DNA of 10,942 nucleotides from a virus (Duplodnaviria; Heunggongvirae; Uroviricota; Caudoviricetes), in the IMG/VR virus record IMGVR_UViG_2778261459_000006; one strand, given 5' to 3'. Each line of letters starts with the position of its first letter. Position 1 is the first letter of the stretch. Positions 1 through 10,942 of the stretch are shown here, one piece after another. The notes beneath the pieces were generated by a model. The model saw nothing but the letters and a program-made list of their open reading frames with translations. It was not told where the DNA came from and did not search any database. Position numbers and translations under genes: made by a program.

Positions 1-408
1 GAGATTGATATGTTGAAAAACCAGTTAAGCAACAAAATTGATATTGTAGACAAACCGGTTAATCAACAAATCGAGACCAATGGCGACGCTATTGTAGGAG
101 AACCAGTTATGAAGGACTTAAGCAACAAAAGCGATATTGTAGACAAACCAGTTAATCAACAAAAAGCGGGTGGCCGTCCGGCAAAATTCAAAGTAGAACA
201 GCTAGAGCAATGGCTTAAGGAGCAAGGCGGATATAAGGGAACTATCGACGATTTGGCGCTACATGCGTTCGGCAAGGTCGGCAAAGATGGCAAGCTGCAT
301 GGCGCACCAGGCCGCCACTGGATGTACAAGGCGTTAGCTGAACTGGAGAGCGAGGGGAAAATTGCCAAAGAGGCAGCGACAAGGAGCGGGATTAATATTG
401 TTGCTTAA
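1..408 (+). CDS. 3' part of a junction-spanning XRE-type HTH regulator; continues from 10518..10942, full protein about 251 aa if the molecule is circular
   Basis: Frame is open from nt 1 and in phase with the ORF beginning at 10518; stop TAA at 406-408. Contains a 93-nt (31-aa) tandem repeat, LSNK(I/S)DIVDKPVNQQ, starting at 25 and 118. Followed by an intrinsic terminator. Confidence 0.7.
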   Translation, partial: EIDMLKNQLSNKIDIVDKPVNQQIETNGDAIVGEPVMKDLSNKSDIVDKPVNQQKAGGRPAKFKVEQLEQWLKEQGGYKGTIDDLALHAFGKVGKDGKLHGAPGRHWMYKALAELESEGKIAKEAATRSGINIVA

Positions 409-452
409 CCCTTAAAGCCAACGATTAGCTACAAAACAAGCCATCAAGCGAA

Positions 453-477
453 GCCCAGCCATGCGCTGGGTTTTTTG
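453..477 (+). terminator. Rho-independent terminator after the HTH regulator gene
   Basis: Stem CCCAGC (454-459) / GCTGGG (465-470), 5-nt loop, then TTTTTT (471-476). Confidence 0.7.
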
Positions 478-494
478 TTTGCAAAAAGCCGTAG

Positions 495-524
495 TTGTAA
501 GCCACTCAAAAGCAGGTTTACAAT
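495..524 (+). promoter_or_regulatory. Candidate sigma70 promoter for the alpA-like operon
   Basis: TTGTAA (495-500), 18-bp spacer, TACAAT (519-524). TTGTAA and TTACAA form an inverted pair 17 bp apart, a possible operator. Sequence match only. Confidence 0.35.
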
Positions 525-556
525 AGATCCTGTAACAGCAACAGAGGAACAAGAAA

Positions 557-841
557 ATGAACGCAAACATTGAACAGCAAGTCATGACAATGAAAGACGT
601 CTGCAAACTGTTAAACCGCTCAAGAACGTCAGTTTACGTTGCCATGATGCGCTACCAGGATTTTCCGGAGCCTATGTCACGCGGTCACGGTGTGCGAATG
701 GTCTGGTTAAAGTCTGAGTTAATTGCCTGGTACGAGCAGCACAAGGACGAGCTCGAAGAATCACGGAAAAACGGAATGATCCCGAATGAAAAGGCGATGC
801 GGAAACAACAACAAAAAGAGGAAGTAGAAAATGCTAACTGA
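557..841 (+). CDS. AlpA-family (phage AlpA/Xis-like HTH) regulator, 94 aa
   Basis: ATG at 557 with GAGGA 8 nt upstream. The segment MKDVCKLLNRSRTSVYVAMMRYQDFPEP...WLKSELIAWYE fits the AlpA/excisionase-type HTH pattern by eye. Stop TGA overlaps the next start (ATGCTAACTGA). Confidence 0.75.
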   Translation: MNANIEQQVMTMKDVCKLLNRSRTSVYVAMMRYQDFPEPMSRGHGVRMVWLKSELIAWYEQHKDELEESRKNGMIPNEKAMRKQQQKEEVENAN

Positions 842-1841
842 TACGACTTTACTGCCCGGCCTTGATGATCCAGCACCGTGGGATGATTCCGGCGGAGAGC
901 AGAAAGAAAAACGCCCGGGTGGGAAAGACCAGGGCGATGAGATGGAATCTGATAATGACACCGAATCCAATACGAATATTATCGCAGCAGATGACGGAAA
1001 CATCAACGGCAATAGCGGTAAAAATTCGTCTGCCGTTGAGGAAATCAGAGCAACGAAACCAATAGACCACAGCCTATGGGGATTGCGCAGTTCAGCACGC
1101 AAACCAGTAGCGAAAGCAACCACGGAAGAGCCTAAAGACATGTGGGCGGAAATCCTGGAAGAGGAAGAAAACGAGCAAGCCACGCAGAGTAACCCAGCCG
1201 TCAATCAAAGCGATGATCGTGATGAATGGGTGAAAAAGATGAGCGCTCTTTCGAAACAGTTACGCAATAAAAACAGCGACGGTTGGAAACAATACGAAAG
1301 CGTGCCGCCTGTCGGGATTCAGGACGACATAAAGAAATCAGATTCAGGCATTGCAGTACGCGAGGGTAAGGAGTTCCGGCAGCGTGATGATCTGGTCATA
1401 GAATCGCGTGAAATAACGCGGCCAGAAGCGCCAGGAAGCAACGAAACGCATGAGGCTGAACAATCGCAAGGCCAGCAGGAAACAGTAAGCGAGAAGGCTG
1501 ATAAGGACTGGCGCGGCGGCGACTACTACAGCTATACGAGCGAAGGATGCGCGCATCGCGCCTTTGACCGGGCTATCAAGTATAAGAGTGACGATAAGAC
1601 ATACTGGCAGACAAAAGGGATTTTTCTGACCATCGCCAGTGCAGCACGCAGGAACAATGACGGGGAATGGGTGACTAAAATGACCATATCATCACTGACT
1701 GGCGACACTCACGGTAACGCGTCCAGGAAGATCAAGGGTTGGATAGAAAGACTGGAGAAAGCTGGCCTATTAATCCCGCTTGAGACGAGTAAGAGAGACG
1801 GGAGAGCGTGGAAAATGGGATTCACGGTCCATCGAGGTTAA
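831..1841 (+). CDS. Hypothetical 336-aa protein: long acidic low-complexity N-terminal region plus a C-terminal winged-helix-like domain; candidate iteron-binding replication protein
   Basis: ATG at 831 with GAGGAAG upstream, overlapping the alpA-like stop. N-terminal about 230 aa is rich in D/E/N/S/Q; the C-terminal about 100 aa (…GIFLTIASAARRNNDGEWVTKMTISSL…KIKGWIERLEKAGLLIPLE) looks like a DNA-binding winged helix. Sits directly upstream of the terminator and iterons. Function is inferred from position only. Confidence 0.7.
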   Translation: MLTDTTLLPGLDDPAPWDDSGGEQKEKRPGGKDQGDEMESDNDTESNTNIIAADDGNINGNSGKNSSAVEEIRATKPIDHSLWGLRSSARKPVAKATTEEPKDMWAEILEEEENEQATQSNPAVNQSDDRDEWVKKMSALSKQLRNKNSDGWKQYESVPPVGIQDDIKKSDSGIAVREGKEFRQRDDLVIESREITRPEAPGSNETHEAEQSQGQQETVSEKADKDWRGGDYYSYTSEGCAHRAFDRAIKYKSDDKTYWQTKGIFLTIASAARRNNDGEWVTKMTISSLTGDTHGNASRKIKGWIERLEKAGLLIPLETSKRDGRAWKMGFTVHRG

Positions 1842-1853
1842 ATCAGCAGCAAA

Positions 1854-1878
1854 GCCCGCCGCGTTGGCGGGTTTTTTG
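1854..1878 (+). terminator. Rho-independent terminator after the 336-aa gene
   Basis: Stem CCCGCC (1855-1860) / GGCGGG (1866-1871), loop GCGTT, then TTTTTT (1872-1877). Confidence 0.75.
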
Positions 1879-1933
1879 TGCCTGAACCGTAAACCAACCT
1901 ATCTCACTAATGGTTTACATGTGATGCGAAGCC

Positions 1934-1942
1934 TGTGGATAA
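1934..1942 (-). promoter_or_regulatory. DnaA box, perfect TTATCCACA consensus
   Basis: The + strand reads TGTGGATAA, the reverse complement of TTATCCACA. It lies 12 bp upstream of the iteron array. Confidence 0.6.
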
Positions 1943-1953
1943 CTCAAGATGAA

Positions 1954-2084
1954 CCATCAGTTTTGTACCCATATAAAAATCGAACCATCAGTTTTGTACC
2001 CATATACCATCAGTTTTGTACCCATATAACCATCTTTGAACCATCAGTTTTGTACCCATATACCATCAGTTTTGTACCCATATG
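1954..2084. repeat. Iteron array: five direct copies of the 22-bp unit CCATCAGTTTTGTACCCATATA; candidate plasmid-type replication origin
   Basis: Exact copies at 1954-1975, 1985-2006, 2007-2028 and 2041-2062; the copy at 2063-2084 ends in G. A truncated copy (CCATCTTTG) lies at 2030-2038. Flanked by a DnaA box upstream and an AT-rich tract downstream. Confidence 0.9.
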
Positions 2085-2130
2085 ATTCCCTGAGGGCCGC
2101 GCCGCATCTGGACTACGCCGCCCATTAAGA

Positions 2131-2200
2131 GGTTTTAAGAGAAAAAAAGATAAGAGTATTAAGATCAGGATATTTATTTTTCATAGATCTATGATTGGTG
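2131..2200. other. AT-rich tract next to the iterons; possible DNA-unwinding element
   Basis: AT-rich sequence including A7 and T5 runs and GATC sites, immediately after a GC-rich block (2093-2125). Confidence 0.35.
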
Positions 2201-2525
2201 ACCTTCGGAAAATCATCCGGGTATTGCTAGCTTGCTATTGGCCTGGCAGTGGGCCTACGGCTGGGAACTGGAGAACATGAAACGACGTAAGGCACGGAGC
2301 GCCCACCATAGGCAGACACATAAACATCTGAGAGCGCGCCTTCTATCGCGCTACGCGCTCAATAAAAACCAACGACACCGCCATCCTGAAAGACCAATGG
2401 TTTTATCTCGTATACAGACCAGACATGAAACAGCAGGCTGAAGTGAACACTCAAGCAAGTTTATCCCGCCGCAGACTACCGCAAACTATCATGACCGTGC
2501 AGAATTCGAACTGAATGCCCCCTAG

Positions 2526-2635
2526 AACGCGATGAACACACATACCCGCTACGATTGCATACCTTAAAATCTCACCTCACCACAGAGCGATTGAGACGCC
2601 TTAAAATTGATGCGATTTCGCTAAATTTTTTCACT
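2526..2635. repeat. Long imperfect direct repeat, copy A (about 110 bp)
   Basis: Aligns with 2836-2946; shared blocks AACGCGATNAACACACATA and TTAAAATNGATGCGATTTC..TAAATTTTTTCACT. Confidence 0.85.
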
Positions 2636-2674
2636 TGATGCAGAGCTGTATGCGTGAAGGACAGTTGCGTCCGC

Positions 2675-2735
2675 AACTTTCTTGTTCAAAACCCCAGCCA
2701 TCAAGCGTTGAGCCGAAACTTTCTTGTTCAAAACC
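2675..2735. repeat. Two perfect 19-bp direct repeats, AACTTTCTTGTTCAAAACC, 42 bp apart
   Basis: Copies at 2675-2693 and 2717-2735, lying between the two long direct repeats. Confidence 0.85.
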
Positions 2736-2835
2736 TGGCAAGCCTCACAACCTCCAACGGAGGAAGCTGGGTTAATCAGCTTGATTCTGAGCCGATTGCC
2801 AGCCGGACTACTGACCAGATACTGCCAGGCCATTC

Positions 2836-2946
2836 AACGCGATTAACACACATAAGCGCCACACTTACTTACCTGAAAACTTCACAGCGTCACAGCGCGT
2901 TTTAGACACGTTAAAATCGATGCGATTTCATTAAATTTTTTTCACT
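2836..2946. repeat. Long imperfect direct repeat, copy B (about 111 bp)
   Basis: Aligns with 2526-2635, 310 bp downstream of copy A; the 3' end contains the small palindrome AATCGATGCGATT. Confidence 0.85.
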
Positions 2947-3072
2947 CGCCTGAATGGTGGCAATCAGGACTGATTGCAACATTGCCCCGCCTCGATACTG
3001 AGCGCATAATAAATACATACATTAAGCGGAAACGTCATTAACAGATTTGGAAAAAACAATGGGTTAAACATC

Positions 3073-3693
3073 ATGCGCATATCAAAGCAGCAACGCCAAA
3101 TCCTCGACTATCTGGCAGAAAACGAATCAATCACAGCACGCCAGGCGGCAGATCTCGTTTATGGCGGCAACGTTACCCGCGTACAGGTCGATGCAGCCCG
3201 CCGTTCACTGATGGCGCTGGTCAGCAATGGGCTAATCATGAAACAAGGCCGCGCTTTCGTAGCTGAAAGACATATCAATCACGCTTATAGCCAGGACGTT
3301 GAAGAGTTGCGCCGTCAGATCCTTTGGGTATTCAGCAAAGAGGGGCAGGACTATCTCATTTCTGAGCGTCCAAATTACGCCGCCAAAGAGTTAACAGTAA
3401 GCGGATTGTCGTGCGCACTGGATTATCTTGTCGGTGAAGGTTGCGTTACTTACAAGCAGCTATGGCACGCCCTGAACACGCTTGTAGAAGATGGTTTACT
3501 CATTGCCACGCGTGAGAATATCGAATACTGGATAATGCCGCGTTCAGGTCGCCGCAATCATGCGCGGTATATTTCAGGCAACAAATACAGAACGCCTGAC
3601 TTTAATCCGACACAGGAAGATCGGGACCGTGCCGAAATGATGTGCAGGGAACGGGAGAAAAGATTCATGGACAAGTTGTTTTCGATGCGGTGA
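3073..3693 (+). CDS. 206-aa protein with two tandem winged-helix-like domains; candidate DNA-binding regulator or Rep-like protein
   Basis: ATG at 3073, stop TGA at 3691-3693, then a terminator. Segments QRQILDYLAENESITARQAADLV...LVSNGLIMKQGR and LSCALDYLVGEGCVTYKQLWHALNTLVEDGLLIA each look like a winged helix. Confidence 0.7.
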   Translation: MRISKQQRQILDYLAENESITARQAADLVYGGNVTRVQVDAARRSLMALVSNGLIMKQGRAFVAERHINHAYSQDVEELRRQILWVFSKEGQDYLISERPNYAAKELTVSGLSCALDYLVGEGCVTYKQLWHALNTLVEDGLLIATRENIEYWIMPRSGRRNHARYISGNKYRTPDFNPTQEDRDRAEMMCREREKRFMDKLFSMR

Positions 3694-3699
3694 ACACAA

Positions 3700-3722
3700 G
3701 CGGGCGCAATGCCCGTTTTTCT
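3700..3722 (+). terminator. Rho-independent terminator after the 206-aa gene
   Basis: Stem CGGGC (3701-3705) / GCCCG (3711-3715), loop GCAAT, then TTTTT. Confidence 0.7.
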
Positions 3723-3861
3723 TATCTCATTCCACGCCAGACGAACCAATTTAATCACACCTGAGCAAATGCATAGCCAGAACTTAAGGCCGTCAGAATG
3801 CGTTATATTGCGTTTAAACAGCATCAATTTTTAATTGCTTTTTGATGCGTGAATCGCAGGC

Positions 3862-3890
3862 AAAAAAAATCCCGCGAGTAGCGGCGGGAA
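3862..3890 (-). terminator. Candidate Rho-independent terminator on the minus strand
   Basis: On the minus strand a hairpin (TCCCGC / GCGGGA, 8-nt loop) is followed by a T8 run (complement of the A8 at 3862-3869). No minus-strand ORF is evident, so whatever it terminates would be non-coding or antisense. Confidence 0.45.
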
Positions 3891-4000
3891 ATAGAGACAT
3901 ATCGTTGTAGTTATTAATAGATCACATTTTGAGGCTGAGGATTTGCCTCACTAATATTATCGCGCCGTTACCTTTTAGTCGCAATTGATTGTTTGAAAGA

Positions 4001-4025
4001 GGCTGGATGAATCCGGCCTTTTTTT
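4001..4025 (+). terminator. Rho-independent terminator with no upstream ORF; possible 3' end of a small RNA
   Basis: Stem GGCTGGA (4001-4007) / TCCGGCC (4012-4018) with one G-U pair, loop TGAA, then TTTTTTT (4019-4025). A promoter-like TTGAGG-17-TAATAT lies about 50-70 bp upstream. Confidence 0.6.
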
Positions 4026-4162
4026 CTGGTTGGAGAATCAAAAACAGATAAACGCGGATATAAGTGAGCCATAGTTGTAAAAAACAAACAGACGAGCGAA
4101 AATACTAACATCGGTAAGTGAATCACCCACAGAAAACCGATTATCTTTAAGCCTGGATTTTT

Positions 4163-4194
4163 AGCCCGCTGCCTTACTGGTCGCGGGCTTTTTC
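4163..4194 (+). terminator. Terminator-like hairpin immediately upstream of the RBS of the second alpA-like gene; possible attenuator or sRNA 3' end
   Basis: Stem AGCCCGC (4163-4169) / GCGGGCT (4183-4189), 13-nt loop, then TTTTT; GGAG RBS at 4202-4205 and ATG at 4214. Confidence 0.55.
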
Positions 4195-4213
4195 GTTTAC
4201 AGGAGCCTGAAAG

Positions 4214-4393
4214 ATGAAATCCATTACCCTGAAAGAAGTCTGCAATATTGCAGGCGTTACCCCTGAGACGTATCGGCGCTGGTTAAAAGAAAACTTGCCC
4301 GGTATCCCGTTACCATATACCCCGAAAGGGAAACATCTTCGTTTTTATGAGGACGAAGTGGTCGCCTGGATTAAAGGCCAGCGTGAGGGATAA
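4214..4393 (+). CDS. AlpA/Xis-family small HTH protein, 59 aa; absent from the ORF track
   Basis: AGGAG 8 nt upstream of ATG 4214. Translation is MKSITLKEVCNIAGVTPETYRRWLKENLPGIPLPYTPKGKHLRFYEDEVVAWIKGQREG, a paralog-like pattern of the 557..841 protein (LKEVC / MKDVC ... V-W ... W). Confidence 0.7.
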   Translation: MKSITLKEVCNIAGVTPETYRRWLKENLPGIPLPYTPKGKHLRFYEDEVVAWIKGQREG

Positions 4394-4425
4394 AGCAGTT
4401 TTTTATATTAAGAAGGGATTGGTAA

Positions 4426-5001
4426 ATGAGAAATGAAATCAAATATCAACATATCAAGCGTCTGTGGTGTCTAAAAGATGGCGTTATTTTTACGAGATGG
4501 GGCAATAAGCCTGTTTCTTTCTCCTGTAAAGTAAACGGGCGCCGCTATACAACGATTAAAGTTAACGGAAAATGGCACGCAGTTCTTATTTATGAAGCTA
4601 TTTTTATGCTGTTCCATGACCGCCCAATCGCTGAAGGAAAAGAAATCCACCACAAGGACGGCGATCCAGAAAATAACGCAATTGACAATCTTGTCGAGCT
4701 AACCAGAACGCAGCACAAGAGGATTCATCAATATCAGTGCAACGACCCGCTGCGCGGTATTTGCCTGAATCAAGGCGCATGGGAATTTAAATGGTATGAC
4801 GATAACGGAATATGCCGCAGCCGACGTTTCCACAGTATTAACGAGGCAATAAACTTCCGTGCCGAAATAGAAAAACCTCGCAGAAGAGAATTACGATTGC
4901 TAGGCTTGAACTGTCGTAAAAAATATCGCGGAATTACCGCAAGCCAACTACGCAAAATAAGCCGGAAGCAAAATTCTCGCTTATGGCGCACACACATTTA
5001 A
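4426..5001 (+). CDS. HNH endonuclease with an AP2-like DNA-binding domain, 191 aa
   Basis: HNH signature IHHKDGDPENNAIDNLVELTRTQHKRIH, then an AP2-like segment RGICLNQGAWEFKWYDDNGICRSRRFHSINEAINFRAEI. AAGGGA RBS upstream. Confidence 0.85.
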   Translation: MRNEIKYQHIKRLWCLKDGVIFTRWGNKPVSFSCKVNGRRYTTIKVNGKWHAVLIYEAIFMLFHDRPIAEGKEIHHKDGDPENNAIDNLVELTRTQHKRIHQYQCNDPLRGICLNQGAWEFKWYDDNGICRSRRFHSINEAINFRAEIEKPRRRELRLLGLNCRKKYRGITASQLRKISRKQNSRLWRTHI

Positions 5002-5020
5002 ACAACTGGAGATTTTTATC

Positions 5021-5287
5021 ATGTCTACTCATTCATTAGAACGCTTTATGAATATCGCACCGAAATCAGCTGAACAGGAAGCGCGCGAACAATTTCAGCG
5101 AAAACTAGAAGCAGCAGCGCGGCACATTGTCGAGAAGATGCCGGAGCTACTAATCCCGTTGATGGAAGAGCTGGCAGCAGAGCTTCAGAAAGAGATGCCG
5201 CAAGATATGGAAGGGACGGCACTACAACGACTGCAGTTTGAAGCAAGCCGCTTACTACATCTTCCAGTAGGTGCATTTCGTAAATAA
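5021..5287 (+). CDS. Hypothetical protein, 88 aa, predicted helical
   Basis: ATG start with GGAG upstream; tightly packed between the HNH gene and the next ORF. No family recognised. Confidence 0.55.
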   Translation: MSTHSLERFMNIAPKSAEQEAREQFQRKLEAAARHIVEKMPELLIPLMEELAAELQKEMPQDMEGTALQRLQFEASRLLHLPVGAFRK

Positions 5288-5302
5288 CAGGGAGAACGAA
5301 CT

Positions 5303-5998
5303 ATGAGCAAAACACAGGAAAGAATACACGAGCTTGAGGCTAAATATAGCCGCTTGCTGACTGAGCGTGACCATGCAACTGGCGCTGATCGCTATCTTGC
5401 GGAAAAAGAACTGAAAGCTACTCGTAAGATGATCATTAAGTTGCACGGTAAAAGCATTACAGAAGAGATACAGGGCCAAATACCTGACATGGTGAAACAT
5501 GCACTTGCTGGTGTAACTGCCCAGGTAACCGAACTGCGTAAACAAGCTGGCATGAAGGTTAATGCTGACGAAAAGCCGGACGAAACGCCAGACGAAAAGC
5601 CGCGTGATGAGCGTATCGCTGAGGCTTTGCATGTGGTTAAGAGCAATCTGCTTAACATGGAAATTGATGACCTCATCGACCTTCGGGATCGTGTCCTCAA
5701 GGCGGTTGAAAGTCGTAACCAGGCAGCAGAGCAAAACAAGCTGGCAGACATGACGGTTAACGCGAACCACGTCGGAGCACCGGACGCCGCCAGTTACTTT
5801 GACCCTAATCTGCCGAAAGAGATAGCTGACTACCTCGATCCGCCGTTGCCGCCAGAAATTGAAGCGCATTTCGCCGAAACGAAAACGGTCGCAGGGGTTG
5901 ACCTGGATTCATACTTTCAGGGCAACAATGAAGCGGCAGGGATTGATTTAGACGAATATTTCCTGCCAAGCAAGCACTACAGCGTAAGTAAAGACTGA
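5303..5998 (+). CDS. Hypothetical protein, 231 aa, with acidic C-terminal repeats
   Basis: GGGAGA RBS 7 nt upstream of the ATG. Short repeats DEKPDETPDEKP and DLD(S/E)YF / YFDPNLP / YLDPPLP. Followed by a terminator. No family recognised. Confidence 0.7.
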   Translation: MSKTQERIHELEAKYSRLLTERDHATGADRYLAEKELKATRKMIIKLHGKSITEEIQGQIPDMVKHALAGVTAQVTELRKQAGMKVNADEKPDETPDEKPRDERIAEALHVVKSNLLNMEIDDLIDLRDRVLKAVESRNQAAEQNKLADMTVNANHVGAPDAASYFDPNLPKEIADYLDPPLPPEIEAHFAETKTVAGVDLDSYFQGNNEAAGIDLDEYFLPSKHYSVSKD

Positions 5999-6005
5999 GC
6001 AAACA

Positions 6006-6026
6006 GGGGCCGCAGCGCCCCTTTTC
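6006..6026 (+). terminator. Rho-independent terminator after the 231-aa gene
   Basis: Stem GGGGC / GCCCC with a 6-nt loop, followed by TTTT. Confidence 0.6.
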
Positions 6027-6045
6027 ACTTTCTGGAGATGAGATC

Positions 6046-6324
6046 ATGTCAACGTCAATTACACTTCGGATCTGTATGGGTATGGCACGCGTTATCACGA
6101 AAGAGGTCACAGATATTAAGCACAGCAGCCGGGAGCTACCATTGCGCCGCCAGCAGTTGCGGATTTTCGCCAGTTACGTTTTTGGCACGTTCGCATCACT
6201 GAAGCGCAAATTGAATGGCGGGCCGGTCAGCAATGAAGAAGCGAATTTTTTAAAAAGACTCACGATGATAGAAAAAGACCTGCACACGCAGTTAGAAAGT
6301 ATCAAGGCAGACGTAGGCGAGTAA
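6046..6324 (+). CDS. Hypothetical protein, 92 aa
   Basis: ATG at 6046 with GGAG 9 nt upstream; stop TAA at 6322-6324. No family recognised. Confidence 0.5.
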   Translation: MSTSITLRICMGMARVITKEVTDIKHSSRELPLRRQQLRIFASYVFGTFASLKRKLNGGPVSNEEANFLKRLTMIEKDLHTQLESIKADVGE

Positions 6325-6375
6325 GTTAGCGAGGTGTTAGCGAACGATAGCGGGTAGTTAGCGAACGATAACGGG
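6325..6375. repeat. Tandem direct repeats of GTTAGCGA; two extended 19-bp copies, GTTAGCGAACGATA(G/A)CGGG, at 21-bp period
   Basis: Copies at 6325-6332, 6336-6354 and 6357-6375, intergenic, immediately upstream of the tail module. Confidence 0.8.
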
Positions 6376-6458
6376 CCGTTTTTTGAAGTTAGTTTTCAAT
6401 GCTAAAACCGCCGAAATCCGCGCCATACGGGTTTTTGCACTATATGAGGGGCGCTTTT

Positions 6459-6722
6459 ATGGGGGTAATTTTCGGACAAGTACTATGCGCGCGCGAGGCA
6501 ATCATGAAGCAAGACATAGCGGAAAGGCTGGAGATACTCGAAAACCAGCGAGAAGAAGCCAGACAGATGCGCAGGGAGGCAAATAAAGAGGGCCGGAAAA
6601 AAGATGCATGGCATCTGAGACAATTCATCAACTTTACAAACCGTTGCATCCAGGAGTGCTACATGGAAGACGCAGAAAACTGGCTGGATTCCTTGCCAGA
6701 AAAGCACGGAACAGAGCGATGA
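6459..6722 (+). CDS. Hypothetical protein, 87 aa from the RBS-supported ATG at 6459 (the ORF track starts it at 6399; 6504 is another possible start)
   Basis: GAGGGG 7 nt upstream of ATG 6459. The protein is charged and helical (…IAERLEILENQREEARQMRREANKEGRKK…). Stop TGA at 6720-6722, in the same frame as the next ORF. Confidence 0.45.
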   Translation: MGVIFGQVLCAREAIMKQDIAERLEILENQREEARQMRREANKEGRKKDAWHLRQFINFTNRCIQECYMEDAENWLDSLPEKHGTER

Positions 6723-6743
6723 TTGTTAGACGAAGGGGGTTAC

Positions 6744-7184
6744 ATGCCGATGAGACACCAGGCTGTCATTGAGCAGATCAAGCGGCAGCTAAGGGAAGAA
6801 ATCAAAGAGATTAGCAAGGACGCGGCGACAGCCGCATATGAGATCGCTATCACTGCCGAAGGCTATGCGGTAGCAGATACACCGAGAGACACGGGCACAC
6901 TTATAAACGGCTATTACATCAATATTGACGAAAATCCTGATGGTGCGCACGCCACTTTAGGTAATACGGAACGCTATGCGTATTGGGTTCATGAAATGCC
7001 GGGGATACTGAAAGGTCAACCGCGCGAACATTTCGGGAAGACAAGGGAAGGCGTTGCCTTTGGTGGCGGTACTGAAAAGGGTTGCTATTGGGATCCTGAT
7101 GCAAGGCCCAAATTCCTTGAGCTTGCGCTCGATGAGCATTACGACGAGTTTATGGATATAGCACGCAAATATTTAAAGCGATGA
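6744..7184 (+). CDS. HK97 gp10-like protein (tail completion / head-tail joining family), about 146 aa
   Basis: Motifs PRDTGTL, YAYWVHE and ARPKFLELAL fit the HK97 gp10-like pattern as I recall it. The ORF-track start at 6723 is a TTG; the ATG at 6744 follows a GAAGGGGG RBS. Confidence 0.6.
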   Translation: MPMRHQAVIEQIKRQLREEIKEISKDAATAAYEIAITAEGYAVADTPRDTGTLINGYYINIDENPDGAHATLGNTERYAYWVHEMPGILKGQPREHFGKTREGVAFGGGTEKGCYWDPDARPKFLELALDEHYDEFMDIARKYLKR

Positions 7185-7193
7185 GGTGAGATC

Positions 7194-9374
7194 ATGGGTG
7201 AACAGGTCGGAAGCCTTCAGATAGATATTGACCTGAAGACAAAAAATTTATTGGTAAGCCAAAACCAGGCTGAAAACGCGCTTGATAATATTGGCAATAA
7301 AATCAGCGGTGTGGAACGCAAAACAAAGACCTTTAACACGCAGTTAACTAAAACATCTGCCGCAGTCAAAAGCAGCCTTTCCCCGGCAATTCGCAACGCA
7401 TCGTTTCAGATCGCGGATTTAGCTACCCAATTGCAGATGGGCGGTAATGCTCTGGCGGCATTTGCCGTTCAGGGCGCACAGTTATTAGCTGGCTTTGGCA
7501 CGATGGGCGCGGTAGCTGGCGCGGTGCTGGCTATAGCTGGCGCTATGGGTGGAAGCCTGGCACAAGGCGCTGATAGTGCAGCCGGATCGGTTGAGTACCT
7601 GGACAAGGCGATCACCAAACTGAACGAGGTCATAGCTGTAAATGAGCAGGGCGTGACGGTGATGACTGATAGTTACGCCAATCTTTCTAAGGTTAACGCT
7701 GAAGTAGCGAAACAGATGCGGAACATGGCTGAAATTCAGGCAATTGCAGCACTGCGTGACCTGAAAGAACAGGCAAGCCAGGCACAGGGGGAAATGTCAT
7801 CATTCTGGCGTAGCTTGCAGGGCGGTAAAGCTGACGCAGCAGCAGCAGCACAGGCACTTGATGACCTGGGAATCACGACCAACGACTATAAAGAAGCGAT
7901 CGCCACACTTAACGCCAATCAGCCGGATACACAGGCGCAGATGGCGACGCTGGCTAAATCCGTGATGTATGTTGGCGAAGAATACGATCTGACCAATCAG
8001 CAAGCCTACGAATTCATCCGGGCGCTGAATAAGGCCGCGACAACGAAAACACCGGAAGCAATGCAGGAGCTATCTGGCTTCATGCAGGTATTGCTACAGG
8101 ACACAGAAAACGGTAACGAGGCATTCAGGGAACTGGCTATCAAATTCGTTGATGCACAAACCAAAGGCGCAATGCTGGAAGACCAACTAAACCGACTGAA
8201 AGGCGCTATCAGTGACGCAGCCACAGAAGCCAGAAACGCCAATTTTACCACTATGCTCAACACCGTCGCCGCACGCCTGGCAGCCATTGAGCAAGGTTGG
8301 GAGGCAGGTGTCAGGATGCAGATGAAAGCCCAGGGCTACACTGAAGAGCAGATCGATGAATATGTGAACATGGAAACGGCGTACAGGGATGCAAAAGCCG
8401 CTTTGGACGAGAAGAACAAGGCCGACCGTGAAGCAATTGCGCTATCCAAACGCCAGGCCGCAGAAGCCGCCCGCAAGGCAAAACAGGAAGAAGCTGAAGC
8501 ACAACGCAAGGCCAAACAGTTAGCGGCGCAGAAAGAACAGGCCGGACGCTTTACGCAGCAGGTGATGACGGAATATCAAACGACCGTGGATCCGGCAACA
8601 GGCCAGGCGTTGAACCCTGCCGCACAAGTGGAAATGCAGGAGCAGCAGAAGAAAACGGCATTAGATAAATACAGGCAGTTGGGTGTTTTGGGTGAGCAGG
8701 AGTATCAGAACACGCTAACAGCCATCCAGAAAACTGCATCAATGCGCCGCCAGCAAATCATCAAAGACGAGGCTGACACGTTATTCAACAATCAGCAGCA
8801 GTTGATCGGCACATTTGGCGATTTCTTCGGTGAACTGTCTGGAGTCATAGCAGACGGCGCGGGTGAGCAAAATGCGGCATATCAAGCGCTATTTGCTGTG
8901 CAGAAGGGGTTTGTATTGGCGTCGGCAGCTTTAAGCCTTCAAAAAGCGCTGGCAGAGGCAAACGCCTTACCTTTCCCGGCTAACCTTCCGGCCTATGCGC
9001 AAGCGATGTCAGCAGGTACGCAGATCATTTCAGCTATTCGTGGAATAGCTTTCGGTGGCGGACGCTACAACGGCGGCGCGGTTGGTGCTGGCAACCTGTA
9101 CCGCGTGGGTGAACACGGTAAGCCTGAGATATTCAAGGCGAACAATGGCAGCCAGTACATGATCCCAGGTGATAACGGTCGCGTGATAAGTAATCGTGAC
9201 ATTGGCGGCGGTGGCGGCGTAACAATCAACAGCCCGATCACCATTAACACTACGAATGGCTTCAGTGATGAAGACTCAAGGCGTCTTGAGGAAGCGATGA
9301 AGCGCGTAGCTATGGGCGTTTGCAGGCAGGAGTCAACCAGACCGGGAGGAATGTTAGCCCCGCGCCGCCGTTAA
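7194..9374 (+). CDS. Phage tail tape measure protein, lambda gpH-like, 726 aa
   Basis: N-terminus MGEQVGSLQIDIDLK, then a Gly/Ala-rich hydrophobic segment (…AAFAVQGAQLLAGFGTMGAVAGAVLAIAGAMGG…), a K/A/E/Q-rich helical region and a glycine-rich C-terminus with GNLYRVGEHGKPEIF. This resembles lambda-H-family proteins by eye. Confidence 0.8.
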   Translation: MGEQVGSLQIDIDLKTKNLLVSQNQAENALDNIGNKISGVERKTKTFNTQLTKTSAAVKSSLSPAIRNASFQIADLATQLQMGGNALAAFAVQGAQLLAGFGTMGAVAGAVLAIAGAMGGSLAQGADSAAGSVEYLDKAITKLNEVIAVNEQGVTVMTDSYANLSKVNAEVAKQMRNMAEIQAIAALRDLKEQASQAQGEMSSFWRSLQGGKADAAAAAQALDDLGITTNDYKEAIATLNANQPDTQAQMATLAKSVMYVGEEYDLTNQQAYEFIRALNKAATTKTPEAMQELSGFMQVLLQDTENGNEAFRELAIKFVDAQTKGAMLEDQLNRLKGAISDAATEARNANFTTMLNTVAARLAAIEQGWEAGVRMQMKAQGYTEEQIDEYVNMETAYRDAKAALDEKNKADREAIALSKRQAAEAARKAKQEEAEAQRKAKQLAAQKEQAGRFTQQVMTEYQTTVDPATGQALNPAAQVEMQEQQKKTALDKYRQLGVLGEQEYQNTLTAIQKTASMRRQQIIKDEADTLFNNQQQLIGTFGDFFGELSGVIADGAGEQNAAYQALFAVQKGFVLASAALSLQKALAEANALPFPANLPAYAQAMSAGTQIISAIRGIAFGGGRYNGGAVGAGNLYRVGEHGKPEIFKANNGSQYMIPGDNGRVISNRDIGGGGGVTINSPITINTTNGFSDEDSRRLEEAMKRVAMGVCRQESTRPGGMLAPRRR

Positions 9375-9636
9375 CCAACTCCCACGCCAGGGGGATAGAC
9401 TGGCGGACCCTTCACGCTCCTACGCAAAAATTCCCTCACAATCGCCCTGTCAATTTTTCAGATTTCACCAGAACGCGCCTGAAACAGCCTTCCCACATCC
9501 TTGATATTCCGTACGCCCTGCTAAAAGCGTGATCTGCGACAAAAATTGTACTTTTTGCCGTTGATTCGGGGTCTGTATGGGAATAATCTCACAATCAAAG
9601 AGAGGTAAGGGTATTTGGGAAATGGAGGAAAGTATC

Positions 9637-10263
9637 ATGGCTAACGCAGCTTATATTCGTGTTTCTACTATCGCTCAGGATACATTGCGCCAACGCGAGG
9701 CTATCGCTAACACTGGCATGAAGTTTGAGAAAATCGTTGAAGAGAAAAGGTCAGGTAAAGACCTCGATCGCCCGGCACTGCGGGAGCTATGCGGCTGGTT
9801 ACGTGAAGGTGACGACCTGTACGTCGCATCAATTGACCGCCTGGGGCGCAAACTGACTGATGTAATGGGCGTGGTTGATGAACTGCGGCAGAAAGGGGTT
9901 CGGGTCCACTTTCTGAAAGAAGGGCAGATCATCGGTGGCGAGATGAACGCGGTTCAGGAGTTCTTTATTCAGCTCATGGCAGCAGCCGCGCAGATGGAAC
10001 GTAGCTTTATGCTTGAACGCCAGAAAGAGGCGAACGAAGCCAGGAGGGCGGCAGGGAAACCGGTTGGGCGTGGGCTGGCACCGAAGATTAAGCAGCAGCT
10101 GCCGTACATCCTCAAGGACATGGAACAACGCAAGGAGTCCATGAGCGACCTTTGCCGCAAATACAAAGTGGCGCGAAGCACAATGTACCGGATCCGCGAC
10201 AACGCCATTCGTGACGGGAAGCTGCCGGAAATTGTGAAGGTCAAAAAGGTCGTCATCAACTAA
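9637..10263 (+). CDS. Small serine recombinase (resolvase/invertase family), 208 aa
   Basis: N-terminal catalytic pattern AYIRVSTIAQ...SGKDLDRPALREL...GDDLYVASIDRLGRKL...GVRVHFL and a C-terminal HTH (ARSTMYRIR). GGAGGA 7 nt upstream of ATG 9637; the ORF-track start at 9577 is probably too far upstream. Confidence 0.9.
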   Translation: MANAAYIRVSTIAQDTLRQREAIANTGMKFEKIVEEKRSGKDLDRPALRELCGWLREGDDLYVASIDRLGRKLTDVMGVVDELRQKGVRVHFLKEGQIIGGEMNAVQEFFIQLMAAAAQMERSFMLERQKEANEARRAAGKPVGRGLAPKIKQQLPYILKDMEQRKESMSDLCRKYKVARSTMYRIRDNAIRDGKLPEIVKVKKVVIN

Positions 10264-10276
10264 CCCACCAAAACAA

Positions 10277-10313
10277 AGGGGACTCAGCAATATCACCGAG
10301 TCCCCTTTTTCTT
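10277..10313 (+). terminator. Rho-independent terminator after the recombinase gene
   Basis: Stem AGGGGACTC (10277-10285) / GAGTCCCCT (10298-10306), 12-nt loop, then TTTTT. Confidence 0.8.
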
Positions 10314-10365
10314 TCTCACAATCCCCGCTGACATTATAACCGCCATTCCCTGGTTTTATCATTTG

Positions 10366-10517: not shown

Positions 10518-10942
10518 ATGTATCAGCCAATGACTTTACCGGATCTGCTATTTGCCGCCGCCGACCGCGCGGGCTATGTCAACAGTAGCGGCAAACTGAA
10601 ACGCAAGGGGTTAGCTGATGCTCTCGGTATCGGTGAGCAGGCGCTTAACAGCTACATGAAAGGTAGCCGGGATGTTAGCACAGAACAACTAAATAACATG
10701 CTGACATTGCTTGGCGTGTACGGCATCGCACCATTCAAGGGCAATCAATGGATGGCGCTGGACGTGGATTATAAAGCGCGTAGCGACGAGATTGTCAGTA
10801 ACAAGATGATTGCGCTGGAACGCGATAACCAGCAAAAGGCACAGCAGATCGCAGCACTGAAAGCTGAGATTGATATGTTGAAAAACCAGTTAAGCAACAA
10901 AATTGATATTGTAGACAAACCGGTTAATCAACAAATCGAGAC
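10518..10942 (+). CDS. 5' part of the junction-spanning XRE-type HTH regulator (continues at 1..408)
   Basis: ATG at 10518; the N-terminus has an HTH pattern (GLADALGIGEQALNSYMKGSRDVSTEQL) followed by a coiled-coil-like segment. The frame runs off the window end and is in phase with 1..408. Confidence 0.7.
   Translation, partial: MYQPMTLPDLLFAAADRAGYVNSSGKLKRKGLADALGIGEQALNSYMKGSRDVSTEQLNNMLTLLGVYGIAPFKGNQWMALDVDYKARSDEIVSNKMIALERDNQQKAQQIAALKAEIDMLKNQLSNKIDIVDKPVNQQIE
10866..10942. repeat. Terminal 77-nt exact duplicate of nt 1-77; circular-contig overlap
   Basis: Direct comparison shows 77 of 77 identical, ending exactly at the window edge. Confidence 0.85.

Follow-up and report, generated by a model that had tools for sequence, protein, structure and literature searches.

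The window, a stretch of 10,942 nt that makes up the whole of contig NNVN01000081.1 from an E. coli assembly, carries a gene for a small serine recombinase near its right end. Positions 1–77 and 10866–10942 form an exact 77-bp terminal repeat, and this repeat at both contig ends is an assembly overlap; the molecule is therefore a 10,865-bp circle. An XRE-type ORF (10518 to 408) spans the circle junction. The features are as follows.

831–2083, + strand: putative Rep ORF (831–1841), then six 22-nt iterons (1929–2083)
9414–9479, no strand assigned: 66-bp backbone block that ends in ACGCGCC and occurs with or without the recombinase
9480–10310, + strand: recombinase cassette (res, gene, and terminator), an indel relative to recombinase-less relatives
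9490–9621, + strand: proposed res with three dyads and six half-sites (-> <- -> <- -> <-), from comparison with other cassette types
9490–9515, + strand: site I, proposed crossover site, 26 bp, TTCCCACATCCT-TG-ATATTCCGTACG, from homologous dyads in types 2 and 3 and from natural joints
9536–9561, no strand assigned: A-tract dyad GCGACAAAAATT-GT-ACTTTTTGCCGT, arms matching at 9/12, single copy
9547–9583, + strand: proposed site II, 37 bp, TGTACTTTTTGC ... TCTGTATGGGAA (reverse complement TTCCCATACAGA), by homology transfer; overlaps a weak promoter-like region
9588–9621, + strand: proposed site III, 34 bp, CTCACAATCAAA-N10-GGTATTTGGGAA (reverse complement TTCCCAAATACC), by homology transfer; abuts the ribosome-binding site (RBS)
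9624–9629, + strand: RBS GGAGGA, 7 nt 5' of the ATG at 9637, conserved in alignments
9637–10263, + strand: small serine recombinase of the resolvase type, 208 aa, from Pfam and PDB matches, alignment, and the public gene call
10270–10313, + strand: hairpin terminator 3' of the gene
10866–10942, no strand assigned: assembly overlap, exact copy of 1–77

The mechanical ORF of the recombinase begins at 9577. This start codon was ruled out by a stop codon in the corresponding extension of a relative (L005) and by the position of the RBS; with GGAGGA lying 7 nt before the ATG at 9637, the gene therefore occupies 9637–10263, which is also the public gene call. A promoter scan found no + strand candidate that passed the threshold. 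By eye, we found a weak promoter-like region upstream of the gene, with a −35 (TTGATT, 9561–9566) and a −10 (AATAAT/TAATCT, 9582–9589). The best promoter-like match of the region is ATGATA-N18-TATAAT (10/12) at 10333–10362 on the − strand, which faces leftward into the recombinase terminator; its −10 lies within GACATTATA, which is kept in all relatives.

Elsewhere in the circle, the central part of the ORF at 831–1841 shares 75% identity with the N-terminus of a protein of a related element (L014) that bears an HTH_36 domain, and this ORF and the iterons probably form a Rep/iteron replicon. Megablast of this region (500–2300) returned no match among 5,426 complete E. coli genomes, which points to a replication module specific to the plasmid form. 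Other ORFs encode two HTH_17/AlpA-like proteins, an HNH endonuclease, a tail-completion (gp10)-like protein, and a 726-aa tape-measure-like protein (7194–9374), which is genuinely related to phage tail tape-measure proteins (phrog_1538, 3e-100); no tyrosine integrase was found in the window. Phage mEp013 matches 164 bp within 7194–9374 at 84% identity. The region 2100–3070 is a long non-coding stretch with repeats at 2526–2631 and 2836–2941 (106 nt, 78%) and at 2671–2693 and 2713–2735 (23 nt, 96%), and 2669–2759 is 92% identical to plasmid pRHB34-C15_2. An Rfam scan of the entire window gave zero matches.

The recombinase protein

The initial annotation had assigned the gene product to the small serine recombinases of the resolvase/invertase type, and the protein searches bear this out. 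The Pfam Resolvase model matched at 9.2e-32 (110.6 bits, cut-off 23.3), while the HTH_7 match was weak and sub-threshold (17.9 bits, cut-off 23.8). In the PDB, Gin invertase and the gamma-delta, Tn3, and Sin resolvases matched almost equally well (1e-19 to 3e-18). Alignment with gamma-delta resolvase placed the nucleophile at S10 and matched Y6, R8, Q14, S39, R45, D59, D67, R68, and R71 as well as the two helix-E glutamates, E121 and E127. A G144-R145 arm joins the catalytic domain to a short C-terminal HTH; the gamma-delta alignment extends to residue 187, and the alignments with gamma-delta and Tn3 both cover this HTH, in which the recognition helix reads ARSTMYRIR. A C-terminal extension of ~20 aa follows, which is common to cassette types 1 (that of the window) and 2. 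The protein has the characters of the small serine recombinase family, i.e., a PF00239 catalytic domain linked through a GR arm to an HTH in ~180–210 aa, and, judged from these alignments, it is intact, with complete catalytic and DNA-binding domains.

We considered whether the enzyme is a DNA invertase that switches gene expression by turning around a segment of the element. The best PHROG family carries the label 'DNA invertase' (5.9e-50), and Gin tops the PDB list, by a slim margin (1.2e-19). However, the NCBIfam model of Mpi-family invertases scored 69.1 bits, far under its cut-off of 272; every sizeable ORF of the window lies on the + strand, with no bracketed segment; and, in the 10.9-kb circle, no candidate site recurs in either orientation and inverted repeats do not exceed 23 nt. 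The initial annotation was therefore right that an invertible segment is missing, and the inversion function that it had nonetheless offered does not hold. We regard an invertase as highly improbable.

The upstream region and natural joints at the proposed site I

To place the recombination site, we compared three diverged cassette types that occupy the same position in related small E. coli plasmids. The upstream regions of types 1 and 2 are collinear homologues (z = 8.1 versus shuffles). In type 2, a site I-like dyad of 26 bp, TGTCCGTAACCA-TG-ATTTGTTGAACA, is the sole match to YGTYC-N16-GRACR in the plasmid (0.10 expected), and a 34-bp dyad, TGTCCGTAATGA-N10-CTATCTGGAACA, is the sole match to YGTYC-N24-GRACR (0.13 expected; 9 kb searched); both lie just upstream of the recombinase gene. 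A fifth half-site, TGTTC, is located between the two dyads, and five of the 39 TGTYC copies fall inside 131 bp. The type-3 element (L114) has six YGTNY half-sites at the same place, the first dyad being CGTCCGATAACCA-TG-CAAAACCATACA. The site positions in the window were transferred by homology from these other types, and they give the array at 9490–9621, with TG at 9502–9503 as the central dinucleotide of site I.

A res of three dyads built from 12-bp half-sites is clear in types 2 and 3, whereas dyad symmetry in the window is weak: its type-1 half-sites are identical at 3–6 of 12 positions inside each dyad, and a half-site matrix built from type 2 did not single out the type-1 region. Three of the seven TTCCCA copies in the window lie inside the 132 bp of the proposed res (orientation + − −), and TTCCCAMAT occurs solely at the two outer ends of the array. 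The right half of site I (reverse complement CGTACGGAATAT) agrees at 10 of 12 positions with the gamma-delta site I half-site, CGTCCGAAATAT. Furthermore, the res region is present in recombinase-bearing relatives only and is missing from relatives that lack the gene, including empty islands. A search by eye for an IHF site gave near-matches only, none of them convincing. The initial annotation had seen no convincing res site, a view that we revise in light of this six-half-site, res-like array. Given these features, we think it probable that the gene encodes an active small serine resolvase and that its target is the gamma-delta/Tn3-like res at 9490–9621.

Three natural joints, none of which was used in building the res model, map to 9499–9503, the centre of site I, and give indirect support to a crossover there. 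First, in the comparison of L001 with L014, 36–37 of ~97 positions differ as far as 9498, and only one differs over the 323 bp that follow; this breakpoint could also be explained by homologous recombination that ended where homology ends, and a donor of the L014 left half-site was not found in complete E. coli genomes. Second, the type-4 element (L116) is identical to the type-1 element L005 through TTCCCACATCCTTG / TGAAAAGCCGTTCCCACATCCTTG, TG included, and is unrelated from the next base. This joint is the cleanest of the three and looks like the hybrid expected from exchange between different res sites with a common central dinucleotide. Third, a deletion variant found on several metagenome contigs (L015–L017) joins 9501 to 10002; the 500-bp deletion (9502–10001) removes most of res and the catalytic domain and leaves an 84-aa C-terminal ORF, and its right end is unlike a site.

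The same joints bear on another reading, in which the enzyme resolves multimers but the crossover core is a hix-like A-tract dyad at 9536–9561 (12-2-12, centre GT), with the TTCCCA/TGTAC flanks as accessory sequences. This dyad, which sits in the gap between sites I and II and overlaps half-site 3, is the only one of its kind upstream of the gene, and its 9/12-symmetric arms occur once in the window; type 2 has a perfect palindrome at this position. With an outer 5 bp followed by an A5 tract and a 2-bp centre, the geometry of the dyad resembles that of hix/gix sites. However, none of the three joints falls at the A-tract dyad, its left arm is unconserved in L005, and the type-2 palindrome is a different sequence with a different geometry. 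We therefore consider a crossover at 9536–9561 improbable and retain site I for this role; the A-tract dyad may bind another protein or form a bend.

The AAAAATT motifs that the initial annotation had proposed as subsites do exist where it put them (9426–9432, +; 9452–9458, −; 9541–9547, +), and these three of the nine copies in the window fall inside 122 bp, a clustering statistically as strong as that of TTCCCA. Their role as res subsites was rejected, as the first two copies (9426 and 9452) belong not to the cassette but to a backbone block that recombinase-less relatives share, and the copy at 9452 is unconserved in other type-1 relatives. That block (9414–9479) is kept across plasmids and islands and carries the inverted A-tract/AAAAATT pair GCAAAAATT ... 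AATTTTTCA. Breakpoints recur at both edges, where the block is joined to a 106–129-bp terminator insert (L008/L014/L020), to a cassette of one of the four types, or simply to a terminator. Around the gene, CTCACAATC is present in three direct copies (9435–9443, 9588–9596, and 10315–10323); the outer two copies are backbone, also present in recombinase-less and type-2 elements, and the middle one is proposed half-site 5. These direct repeats were rejected as excision sites: empty relatives retain both flanking copies, hence there is no excision scar.

Plasmid relatives and integrated islands

The recombinase belongs to a small clade, restricted to E. coli, with a 101-member cluster (at least 90% identity), two proteins at 82–84%, and nothing else above 48%. 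The segment 9414–10338 is ~92% identical in 8–9-kb elements of otherwise unrelated DNA, several of them circular by terminal overlap, and the related elements are circular contigs or complete plasmids of 8–10.9 kb. We looked at 20 clusters of the clade, 285 sequences in all; in 19 of these clusters, no listed contig reaches 12 kb. The 5,426 complete E. coli genomes contain the type-1 recombinase on two plasmids and on none of their chromosomes, and they contain no type-2 DNA. The gene order of the window is shared by two complete circular plasmids, pRHB34-C15_2 (L022) and pRHB29-C22_2 (L023), whose recombinase, of type 2, is 46–47% identical, and a profile search added two more recombinase types, designated types 3 (L114) and 4 (L116). 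A circular relative (L016) has a truncated recombinase, and the gene is thus dispensable for replication. Searches for relatives returned one unrelated locus from genome contigs and none from viral contigs; a viral DNA-pattern scan gave one true relative among 45, and a metagenome scan gave seven, without a new recombinase type.

The backbone of the window (78–9300; loci L002, L003, L018–L021, and L112) has a different distribution. It matches 261 of the 5,426 complete E. coli genomes, in every case on the chromosome. We inspected six of these places, and each proved to be a CPZ-55-type island that lies between eutB/intZ and eutA and carries the tyrosine integrase IntZ at the island end. These islands share with the window its structural-like and regulatory backbone, 85–99% identical in parts, including 9414–9479 and the 3' end of the tape-measure-like gene (97–99% identical to the island copies). 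Unlike the window, they are integrated, carry IntZ, and lack the serine recombinase save for one exception; the window has the Rep/iteron module instead. Islands with a homologous intergenic region join 9384–9479 to 10311 onward, with a 33–38-bp terminator between, and the cassette is therefore an indel spanning 9480–10310. The exception is an integrated eut island (L112/L113, 10001–10612) with an intact type-2 recombinase and res beside IntZ, indicating that the cassette is not strictly tied to plasmid life.

These islands raise the question of whether the recombinase could be an integrase or excisionase that works with the AlpA-like proteins, as the initial annotation had allowed, and inserts the element into a chromosome or prophage. 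Members of the backbone family are indeed found integrated between eutB and eutA, and one integrated island bears a type-2 cassette. Yet all integrated relatives have IntZ at the island end and use it, type 1 was in none of the chromosomes of the 5,426 genomes, and the L112 cassette is internal to its island with res intact and unsplit, hence away from the att junction. In addition, the 208-aa protein is without the large C-terminal domain of serine integrases. Integration or excision by this enzyme is thus hardly credible.

Taken together, the comparison suggests a phage-satellite-like island family of which the window would be a plasmid-borne version. Our literature search returned no direct description of CPZ-55 as a satellite or of plasmid satellites of tailed phages; a recent review counts only one proven plasmid phage satellite and holds that others may exist (PMC12282955). 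Another reading ties the cassette to the replicative or transfer phase of a phage-satellite-like life instead of to vegetative plasmid stability: it would resolve concatemers from induced replication or from multimeric packaging into helper-phage heads, or it would be largely a selfish, exchangeable module. The HNH, tail-completion-like, and tape-measure-like genes of the backbone and a terminase-small-subunit-like gene in relatives speak for this reading, as do the presence of the cassette in one integrated island and its swapping between unrelated backbones at 92% identity. Plasmid carriage, which is overwhelmingly the rule, speaks against it, and we judge this reading unlikely.

Proposed function and comparison with known systems

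The recombinase is most likely a divergent but conventional resolvase with its own res, which would explain why a target had seemed to be missing. The cassette is most likely an ordinary plasmid multimer-resolution system rather than one for integration or inversion, because a single res on a small iteron replicon is combined with an intact resolvase, no inverted partner, and near-exclusive carriage on small contigs. Thus, among the three functions first offered, it is multimer resolution that fits the single res and the iteron circle, and inversion and integration/excision drop out. In the mechanism that we propose, resolvase dimers would occupy the three dyad subsites, the two directly repeated res sites of an iteron plasmid dimer or multimer would synapse, and strand exchange at the TG centre of site I (9502–9503) would restore monomers. 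Multimers of the Rep/iteron replicon (831–2083) would be the substrate. As sites II and III extend into the promoter-like region and up to the RBS, their occupancy would likely autoregulate the gene; with site III directly beside the RBS, the effect would probably be repression. Half-site binding, resolution activity, autoregulation, and a benefit to plasmid stability are what we infer from this arrangement.

The closest parallel is the Tn3/gamma-delta group. The res of Tn3 consists of three dimer-binding sites made of 12-mer half-sites, and recombination there favours res copies that are directly repeated within a single supercoiled circle (PMC9943657). The arrangement proposed for the window is alike in having res directly 5' of the gene, 12-bp half-sites, the crossover site farthest from the gene, a first dyad set apart, sites II and III almost abutting, and the gene beside site III (PMC9943657). 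The proteins share the fold, all catalytic residues, and a near-identical recognition helix (ARSTMYRI versus ARSTVYKV in gamma-delta). However, the recombinase is only 33% identical to gamma-delta resolvase and is set apart from this group by its ~20-aa C-terminal extension. The DNA sites differ as well: their lengths are 26/37/34 bp versus 28/34/25 in Tn3, the site I centre is TG rather than the palindromic AT of Tn3/gamma-delta, and the half-sites TTCCCA and CTCACA depart from TGTCYG. The carrier is a plasmid and not a transposon. The window contains no DDE transposase ORF and no terminal inverted repeats of ~38 bp, and a Tn3-family transposon as the present carrier finds no support.

In its inferred role, a self-encoded recombinase that acts on a single adjacent res to yield monomers, the system resembles ParA-res of RP4/RK2, Sin of staphylococcal plasmids, and beta of pSM19035. 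Sin is a clear PDB homologue (3e-18), and in sequence the recombinase is equidistant from the ParA, Sin, and beta systems. The res of Sin and beta has two dimer sites and an HU/IHF site (PMC9943657), in contrast to the three dyads proposed here, with no convincing IHF site. The Hin/Gin/Cin/Pin invertases belong to the same protein family and likewise use a 26-bp crossover site with a 2-bp centre; unlike them, the window has neither an inverted partner site nor an invertible segment, and identity to these proteins is only ~35%.

For the recombinase itself, these results change little in understanding. The four diverged, naturally hybridising res/resolvase pairs with a common TG crossover could serve as orthogonal recombination tools, and they offer a natural example of res-mediated module exchange. 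The surrounding element family merits a separate look: a small E. coli plasmid family that has tail- and packaging-related genes in common with integrated CPZ-55-type islands bears on the number of plasmid phage satellites (PMC12282955). It is possible, if on balance doubtful, that the window represents a family of plasmid-borne, phage-satellite-like elements, so far undescribed, which either descends from the CPZ-55-type eut islands or is ancestral to them, and in which the res-resolvase cassette would enable life as a replicon and the recovery of monomers after concatemeric replication or packaging; site I exchange between res types would then also shuffle modules among elements, to which the hybrid sites of L014 and L116 point.

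Remoter plasmid recombinases (40–44% identity) are encoded on 5.7-kb plasmids of E. coli, Salmonella, and Klebsiella. Just upstream of these genes (L006, 2686–2801; L024) are half-site arrays in which TGTATCGA occurs five times and CGTAGTGAT three times.
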